A stretch of DNA of 64,000 bases from assembly GCF_003334785.1 (NCBI RefSeq), contig NZ_QOWV01000004.1. One strand, written 5' to 3'. Positions within the stretch are counted from its first letter, which is position 1, and each line of letters begins with the position of its first letter. Positions 62,087 through 62,880 of this stretch are shown here, in pieces. The translations under genes and the position numbers were made by a program. The stretch comes from Escherichia coli (GTDB lineage Bacteria; Pseudomonadota; Gammaproteobacteria; Enterobacterales; Enterobacteriaceae). The notes beneath the pieces were generated by a model. The model was not told the origin of the DNA. It saw nothing but the letters and a program-made list of their open reading frames with translations, and searched no databases.

Positions 62087-62249
62087 ACCCTCTTCCAGGA
62101 ATAATCCCTGGCCCAAAAAGCCGGGGATTTTTTATATCTGCGTTCCGCTAAAAAGTGCAAATGATCAGGTTGTTGCAGCATTTTGCGTGACGGCTCGGGG
62201 AAGGCAAAACTGCATCAGAGAAAGCATTGCGTGGGGTCTGGCGCTCATC

Positions 62250-62410
62250 AACAATCGGGGAGTCAGCAGGGGGCTGAAACGGGAAAGCCCCTCCCGAAGA
62301 AGGGGGCCTTACAGAAGGAAAGGGTTATGATGAAGCTCGTCATCATACTGATTGTGTTGTTACTCGTAAGTTTCGCAGCTTATTAACAGCCAATCAGAGG
62401 GGGGAGAAAT
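62250..62410 (-). ncRNA. sibD: SibD antisense sRNA (antitoxin of IbsD), approximate bounds
   Basis: Sib RNAs are encoded opposite to and fully overlapping ibs (established knowledge); hairpin near 62285-62306; bounds not precisely determinable by eye. Confidence 0.45.
62327..62386 (+). CDS. ibsD: Type I toxin IbsD (19-aa hydrophobic peptide)
   Basis: MMKLVIILIVLLLVSFAAY within the first copy of a ~379-bp tandem repeat. Confidence 0.85.
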   Translation: MMKLVIILIVLLLVSFAAY

Positions 62411-62624
62411 CCTCCCTCACCCTTGTTCCTTTACTTTAGGTTGAAAAAAAATCAGCGTCAAGAAGGTTTCATTAACACATATCCCTGGCCCAAAAAGCCG
62501 GGGATTTTTTATATCTGCGTTCCGCTAAAAGGTGCAAATGCTCAGGACGTTGCAGCGTTTTGCGTGACCGCTCGGGGAAGGCAAAATTGCCTCTGGGAAA
62601 GCATTGCGCGGGGTCCGGCGCTCA

Positions 62625-62785
62625 TCAACAATCGGGGGGCAGCAAGGGGCTGAAACGGGAAAGCCCCTCCCGAAGAAGGGGCCTTGTATAAGGAAAGGGT
62701 TATGATGAAGCTCGTCATCATACTGGTTGTGTTGTTACTGTTAAGTTTCCCGACTTACTAACAACTCATCAGAGGGGGGAGAAAT
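62625..62785 (-). ncRNA. sibE: SibE antisense sRNA (antitoxin of IbsE), approximate bounds
   Basis: Second copy of the ibs/sib repeat unit; same logic as sibD. Confidence 0.45.
62702..62761 (+). CDS. ibsE: Type I toxin IbsE (19-aa hydrophobic peptide)
   Basis: MMKLVIILVVLLLLSFPTY in the second repeat copy. Confidence 0.85.
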   Translation: MMKLVIILVVLLLLSFPTY

Positions 62786-62880
62786 CCTCCCTTACCCTTG
62801 TTCCTTTACTCTAGGTTGAAAAAACAACAGCGTCAATAGGCCTGCCATGTACGAAGCGAGATCTGTGAACCGCTTTCCGG

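Follow-up and report, generated by a model that had tools for sequence, protein, structure and literature searches.

Two adjacent ibs/sib type I toxin-antitoxin modules between yqiK and hldE in an Escherichia coli strain closely related to K-12

What does the repeated block between yqiK and hldE encode, close to the end of the 64,000-nucleotide stretch of E. coli DNA analysed here (the window)? A first-pass annotation made from the letters alone had named it ibsD/sibD and ibsE/sibE, two type I toxin-antitoxin loci in a tandem duplication. The intergenic region (62087-62880), bounded on the left by yqiK (60425-62086, plus strand, stop at 62086) and on the right by hldE (minus strand, stop at 62881), was found to be 100% identical to positions 3194526-3195319 of MG1655 (NC_000913.3), where the K-12 reference annotation lists sibD, ibsD, sibE and ibsE between the same two genes. 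Because of this complete identity the K-12 annotation transfers directly to the window, and the naming and the flanks given earlier are thereby borne out. The flanks also agree with the annotation of strain L73. A megablast search with 61900-63000 gave matches in 5,426 of 5,426 complete E. coli genomes; annotated features in the matched regions are yqiK, Ibs-family toxin, ibsE and hldE, and the yqiK/hldE flanks were the same in all 5,410 genomes in which the match covered at least 80% of the query. That the locus consists of two adjacent type I toxin-antitoxin modules of E. coli, ibsD/sibD and ibsE/sibE, is in our judgement virtually certain, and the sequence itself offers nothing against this reading. 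The locus is already known and its anatomy shows no departure from the published description. The discovery value is accordingly small, and the case is useful as a positive control for reading raw sequence alone: a 19-codon toxin gene and an antisense RNA, features of a kind that gene callers often miss, were recognised in it.

Compared with sibD/ibsD (b4447/b4664) and sibE/ibsE (b4611/b4666) of K-12 MG1655, the intergenic sequence, the peptides, the Sib RNAs and the flanks are all identical, and strain differences are confined to other parts of the window. Over about 60 kb the host strain differs from MG1655 by 14 mismatches, and the window is 99.93-99.98% identical. In MG1655 the fimbrial usher gene yqiG is split by the element IS2I, which is absent at approximately 54984-54992 of the window, so that yqiG appears intact. 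The host is considered a close K-12 relative, and MG1655 itself is excluded because yqiG is without IS2I. A correspondence of the window to MG1655 3132440-3196439 was tried and proved wrong, as BLAST gives a 1,336-bp offset from the missing IS2I; K-12 coordinates therefore map directly only for the last ~9 kb.

The tandem duplication at 62104-62836 is real and far above chance. Tandem Repeats Finder returned one array over this interval (period 377, 1.9 copies, 90% matches, score 1235), and find_repeats divided it into two blocks of the near-identical units, one at 62104-62260/62481-62637 with 92% identity and a spacing of 377, and a second at 62282-62461/62657-62836 with 85% ungapped identity and a spacing of 375. 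A pairwise alignment of the units contains two 1-nt indels and about 33 substitutions, and it is the two indels that shift the spacing from 377 to 375. The period first proposed, about 379 bp, has to be corrected to these measured values of 377/375 bp. The start of the first unit had been placed correctly at 62104, but the second unit begins at 62481, 2 nt away from the proposed 62483, and the repeat does not run to 62860 as had been claimed, since unit homology stops at the motif GCGTCAA (62461/62836). In the unit alignment a unique 19-bp spacer (62462-62480) separates the units, and the stretch before the hldE stop codon (62837-62880) is likewise unique and lies outside the repeat. Each unit does carry a 19-codon open reading frame, although not at its end as first described: the frame occupies unit offset 224-283, and the ~75 nt behind it hold the 5′ stem-loop and the promoter of the Sib RNA.

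Whether the left edge of each unit belongs to the modules is a separate matter. A hairpin with a T-tract had been reported to open each unit, and a terminator scan found both on the plus strand, the first at 62103-62129 (10 pairs, 6 GC, followed by TTTTTATATCT), 17 nt past the yqiK stop at 62086, and the second at 62481-62505 (9 pairs, 6 GC). The two copies are identical in the unit alignment, but they are not part of the Sib repeat family. In an alignment of all five K-12 units the sibA, sibB and sibC units lack the hairpin, and family-wide homology spans only ~62195-62461, with D and E sharing about 90 bp beyond it, hairpin included. Because the homology with sibA/B/C covers only this interval, the hairpin is interpreted as the intrinsic terminator of yqiK, which was duplicated as well. 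A terminator is to be expected immediately behind yqiK, and that is the position of the hairpin in all species examined. It seems unlikely that hairpin and T-tract are instead an integral functional part of the Ibs/Sib module; perfect conservation of the hairpin between the two units and its presence at the yqiK-hldE locus of other genera, ~190-220 nt ahead of ibs, would suit such a role, but it is missing from sibA, sibB and sibC, whose homology with D/E begins only at ~62195, and it lies outside both mapped transcripts (PMC2943612). A similar hairpin is found 3′ of yqiK in most single-unit species. As a copied yqiK terminator, the second hairpin (62481-62505) may halt read-through from ibsD ahead of the ibsE promoter. 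The left edge of the family-wide homology is marked by a TTTTGCG box (~62194-62200 and ~62571-62577), about 65 nt ahead of the point where ibs transcription starts; the box is conserved in each of the five Sib units of K-12 and, in other genera, at the orthologous locus.

On the plus strand, the ibsD promoter was read from the sequence at 62227-62255, with TTGCGT at -35 (62227-62232), a 17-bp spacer and AACAAT at -10 (62250-62255). The transcription start of ibsD has been mapped by primer extension to the G at 62262, GTCAGCAGGGGG, and the T7-ibsD primer, GTCAGCAGGGGGCTG, was published in the same study (Han 2010, PMC2943612). The sequence AACAATCG is invariant across genera at the yqiK-hldE locus. 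According to Han 2010 (PMC2943612) the ibsD mRNA is 163 nt long, corresponding to 62262-62424 (+) with an estimated 3′ end, and the primers ERI-T7-ibsD and ibsD+163 from that work map to 62262 and 62403-62424. The ibsD coding sequence (62327-62386, +) has 19 codons, MMKLVIILIVLLLVSFAAY, and is identical to K-12 b4664; that of ibsE (62702-62761, +), also of 19 codons, MMKLVIILVVLLLLSFPTY, is identical to K-12 b4666 and to WP_010723221.1, and both translations are exactly those quoted in the first-pass annotation. The reference labels are 'putative toxic peptide' for IbsD (b4664) and 'toxic peptide IbsE' for IbsE (b4666). An in-frame 67-aa extension of ibsD from an upstream TTG was dismissed, as it begins upstream of the mapped transcription start. 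By homology the ibsE promoter is assigned to 62604-62632 (+), with TTGCGC at -35 (62604-62609) and AACAAT at -10 (62627-62632), lining up with the ibsD promoter when the two units are aligned, which would put the ibsE transcription start at approximately 62639.

IbsD matches the Pfam family PF13956 Ibs_toxin over its full length (E = 4.6e-9, model positions 1-19/19). An NCBIfam scan with both peptides extended to 25 aa gave no Ibs HMM, the sole weak match being to the RC1041 family with a meaningless E = 0.12; Ibs membership is left untouched by this result because NCBI names these peptides by other rules. The predicted fold of the ibsD mRNA has -68.6 kcal/mol (z = -4.8); in it the AUGAUG start codons and codons 5-7 form a hairpin, and part of the Shine-Dalgarno sequence is also paired. 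Since start codons and part of the Shine-Dalgarno sequence would thus be held in stems, the model suggests that ibsD translation is intrinsically damped by the fold of its mRNA. The starts of both ibs frames (62327-62346 and 62702-62721; ATGATGAAGCTCGTCATCAT) form an inverted repeat, which makes up the P6 hairpin of Sib as well as the hairpin that buries the start codons in the ibs mRNA. Minus-strand reading frames inside Sib (MMTSFIITLS...) were dismissed as a by-product of this ATGATGA...TCATCAT inverted repeat; none of them is preceded by a Shine-Dalgarno sequence, and that in SibD overruns the 3′ end of the RNA.

The antisense partners were located on the minus strand of both units. SibD RNA extends over 62282-62426 (145 nt, +1 = A at 62426; K-12 b4447) with its terminator hairpin at ~62284-62310, and the published SP6-SibD primer starts at ACAAGGGTGAGGG, that is at the A at 62426 (Han 2010, PMC2943612). 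Upstream of it the promoter scan found -35 TTGACG (62461-62456) and -10 TAAAGT (62438-62433) within 62427-62461 (-), the 35-bp minimal promoter that is sufficient for SibD expression and NAD capping (Liu 2026, PMC12956327). SibE RNA extends over 62658-62801 (-; 144 nt, +1 = A at 62801; K-12 b4611) with a terminator hairpin at ~62660-62685, and its promoter at 62802-62836 (-), homologous to the sibD minimal promoter, was found by the same scan with -35 TTGACG (62836-62831) and -10 TAGAGT (62813-62808). In both cases the -35/-10 elements lie at the expected distance, 7 nt, upstream of the +1 A.

A covariance-model search for the Sib family, proposed at the outset as a check, matched RF00113 (SIB_RNA) twice on the minus strand, at 62312-62461 with 147.7 bits and at 62687-62836 with 142.1 bits against a gathering score of 56, and both matches were full-length (model positions 1-147/147). 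The RF00113 model is offset by about 35 nt, its first ~35 positions being the Sib promoter and its end falling before the terminator hairpin, and because of this offset the Rfam coordinates differ by ~30-35 nt from the annotated sibD and sibE. Minimum free energy folding gave -49.7 kcal/mol (z = -2.8) for SibD and -50.7 kcal/mol (z = -3.3) for SibE, both multi-helix structures with a 3′ terminator hairpin. The consensus structure of 20 Sib sequences, drawn from the five K-12 units, E. albertii, the cryptic Escherichia clade, Citrobacter, Kluyvera, Phytobacter, Pseudocitrobacter and Raoultella, has 34 pairs, seven of them with compensatory changes, for example a G-C to C-G switch in nine of the 20 sequences. 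The ibsD frame (62327-62386, +) lies wholly inside and antisense to sibD (62282-62426, -), and ibsE (62702-62761, +) likewise inside sibE (62658-62801, -), the ribosome-binding site included in each case. With the transcript ends fixed by the Han 2010 primers, ibsD mRNA and SibD overlap by about 143 nt. From the identical K-12 sequence the antisense RNAs have been detected experimentally, SibD and SibE on Northern and NAD-cap blots (Han 2010, PMC2943612; Liu 2026, PMC12956327; mBio 2022, PMC9426594); both were seen as NAD-capped transcripts starting at the +1 A (PMC12956327), and SibE and ibsE were seen on Northern blots (PMC9426594).

With both halves of each module in place, it can be asked whether the locus is a decayed remnant, a 'QUAD'-type intergenic repeat whose small reading frames are no longer expressed or toxic and in which the small RNAs alone, or nothing at all, keep a role. 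We regard this as most improbable. Both units retain an intact 19-codon frame with its Shine-Dalgarno sequence and both promoters, these elements are also conserved in the orthologous locus of Citrobacter, Kluyvera, Phytobacter and E. albertii, and the Pfam and Rfam matches are full-length. A remnant would agree with the lack of a known deletion phenotype for most sib/ibs loci, with a physiological role that is not established (PMC2943612; PMC9426594), with the 'putative' label carried by IbsD in the reference and with the ~28% of E. coli genomes that get by with one unit; yet pBAD-ibsD has been used in repression assays that depend on IbsD toxicity (Han 2010, PMC2943612), and the sensitivity of a delta-sgrS strain to alpha-MG is strongly suppressed when sibE/ibsE is lost (PMC9426594).

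For functional modules the literature provides a detailed scheme. Five Sib RNAs of ~140 nt are described, the 18-19 aa Ibs peptides are toxic when overproduced, and Sib RNAs repress the cognate ibs only (Han 2010, PMC2943612). SibC has two independent target-recognition domains, TRD1 at +46 to +68, within the reading frame, and TRD2 at +99 to +115, in the translation-initiation region (PMC2943612), and SibC carrying the TRDs of SibD represses ibsD (Han 2010, PMC2943612). IbsC depolarises the membrane within minutes (review PMC8309996), and both a block of ribosome binding and RNase III-dependent decay are believed to contribute to repression (PMC4147584). Following this scheme, each ~375-bp unit would give two convergent, almost fully overlapping transcripts. 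From the plus strand a weak promoter would produce an mRNA of ~160 nt encoding the 19-residue hydrophobic Ibs peptide, an excess of which would insert into the inner membrane, depolarise it and stop growth. From the minus strand a stronger promoter would produce a Sib RNA of ~145 nt, with perfect complementarity to its own ibs mRNA over the ribosome-binding site and the entire reading frame. Two exposed segments would make the first contact, TRD1, which faces codons ~11-19, and TRD2, which faces the translation-initiation region, after which pairing would spread, ribosome binding would be blocked and the mRNA would decay, probably through RNase III. As Sib pairing would block ribosome binding and lead to mRNA decay, the toxin would normally not be made. 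For the transcripts, toxicity, cognate-only repression and TRD mechanism this account draws on published work with the identical K-12 sequence or with the paralogue sibC/ibsC, and the present analysis contributes sequence anatomy and identity; on that footing both modules would be expected to be expressed, and their peptides toxic, in the host strain as well.

The divergence of the two copies, toxin C-termini included, had been pointed out in the first-pass annotation and is confirmed (FAAY vs FPTY). SibD and SibE differ at 15 positions, eight of which fall within the 40 nt equivalent to TRD1 plus TRD2, a weakly significant enrichment (binomial P = 0.03). The published TRD mapping was done in SibC with D-type swaps, and the SibE TRDs are assigned by equivalence, so that their positions in SibE are putative. 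The cluster of differences in TRD1 consists of the same changes that alter the toxin C-termini, and for this reason the C-terminal divergence coincides with a published determinant of specificity. Since the differences between SibD and SibE lie mainly in TRD1 and TRD2, each should silence its own partner only.

On a different view SibD and SibE would mainly regulate other genes in trans, or would serve some other purpose as NAD-capped RNAs, and the toxin frames would be incidental. SibC, SibD and SibE, which start with A, are among the most heavily NAD-capped RNAs and respond to ppGpp/DksA, by which capping is stimulated (PMC12956327); the genetic interaction between sibE and sgrS is also unexplained (PMC9426594). 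Against this stand the conservation of ibs as a reading frame across genera despite many nucleotide changes, the complete complementarity of Sib and ibs together with the cognate-specific rescue from toxicity (PMC2943612), and the fact that no trans target of SibD or SibE is known, and we give this view very little credence. Read as two cis-antisense toxin-antitoxin modules, the locus leads on to the question of how the pair originated.

The comparative set comprised one genome per species and was examined further by an Rfam search and by tblastn with the flanks. One unit was found at yqiK-hldE in Citrobacter youngae, in Phytobacter (two loci, L015 and L019), in Kluyvera and in a further Enterobacteriaceae genome (L022), and two units in Escherichia albertii and in Escherichia sp. 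E1V33 of the cryptic Escherichia clade; an intact 19-codon frame was kept at all these loci. Unit 1 of E. coli is closest to unit 1 of E. albertii (93.2% vs 90.8% to its unit 2), and the two species share the same IbsD peptide. Because unit 1 pairs with unit 1 and IbsD is identical, the duplication predates the split of E. coli and E. albertii. In the five-unit K-12 alignment D and E are 39-75% identical to A, B and C across ~62195-62461, and D and E are 84-91% identical to each other over the whole unit. The distribution and alignments indicate that the pair arose in the Escherichia lineage, when a single ancestral unit and the yqiK terminator with it underwent a local tandem duplication. Two tandem Sib elements were also seen in Pseudocitrobacter faecalis (L012, 8694-9117), ~276 bp apart and thus with a shorter period than in Escherichia; this pair seems to have been duplicated independently and may be of the sibA/B type.

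Within E. coli the number of units varies. A 71-nt query across the D-E junction (window 62436-62506) matched 3,930 of 5,426 complete genomes (72%), and a single unit was present in 7/30 genomes of an evenly spaced sample. The sampled single-unit alleles are D/E mosaics and encode the toxin MMKFVIILVVLLLLSFPTY or the hybrid MMKLVIILIVLLLVSFATY, the hybrid toxin ending in ...VSFATY. When variant loci of E. coli were compared (L003 and L025 to L028), strain DG343-1, with two units, had an IbsD-type peptide in the second position, and strain TW10590 had an IS66 element beside its single unit. Two junction matches occurred in fifteen genomes, a possible sign of three units. An ancestral status of the single-unit E. 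coli alleles was rejected, as E. albertii and the cryptic clade already have two units and the single units are D/E mosaics. The pattern fits secondary loss and gene conversion through recombination between the repeats. A further-reaching proposal, that the array is a recombination-prone locus of variable copy number in which unequal crossing-over and gene conversion repeatedly make chimeric toxin/antitoxin pairs, is offered tentatively, as a possibility that we consider more doubtful than probable. If true, the locus would be a natural series for studying the drift of cis-antisense specificity in TRD1/TRD2. No quantification of the D/E pattern on a population scale was found in the literature consulted, and strain-to-strain variation in ibs/sib number has already been reported in general terms.

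Among the known systems, the best-studied K-12 paralogue sibC/ibsC has, like D/E, a 19-aa hydrophobic toxin fully inside its antisense RNA (~141 nt), and shares helices P1, P2, P5 and P6, the terminator and the TRD1/TRD2 logic. Unlike D/E it is a single unit, located between fau and serA; identity with D/E is 72-75% in the Sib region and only 35-39% upstream, and SibD fails to repress ibsC (PMC2943612). The sibA/ibsA and sibB/ibsB pair (yegL-mdtA), of the same family, also consists of two tandem units in one intergenic region, but it is an independent duplication, with A and B 93% alike upstream of ibs and only 39% identical to D/E there. SibA and SibB start with G and are not NAD-capped, unlike SibD and SibE (PMC12956327), and IbsB has 18 residues whereas IbsD and IbsE have 19. 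The LDR repeats with ldr/rdl and the zorO-orzO/zorP-orzP pair resemble D/E in having a small hydrophobic toxin, an RNA antitoxin and an intergenic duplication (PMC2887945); their sequences are however unrelated, and their antitoxins are divergently encoded and pair with the 5′ UTR, the whole reading frame being left uncovered (PMC4147584).

Other elements were noted elsewhere in the window. The type II toxin-antitoxin system mqsR/mqsA would lie at ~36748-37441 (-), a position obtained by applying the 1,336-bp offset to the K-12 annotation. An FMN riboswitch (RF00050, 120.9 bits) was found at 53467-53615 (-), upstream of ribB. The other Rfam matches at the gathering score, at 25418-25481 (+), 8521-8597 and 19567-19637 (-), are the ES173 sRNA (99 bits) and naRNA4/CssrE-type elements, one naRNA4 element matching on both strands.
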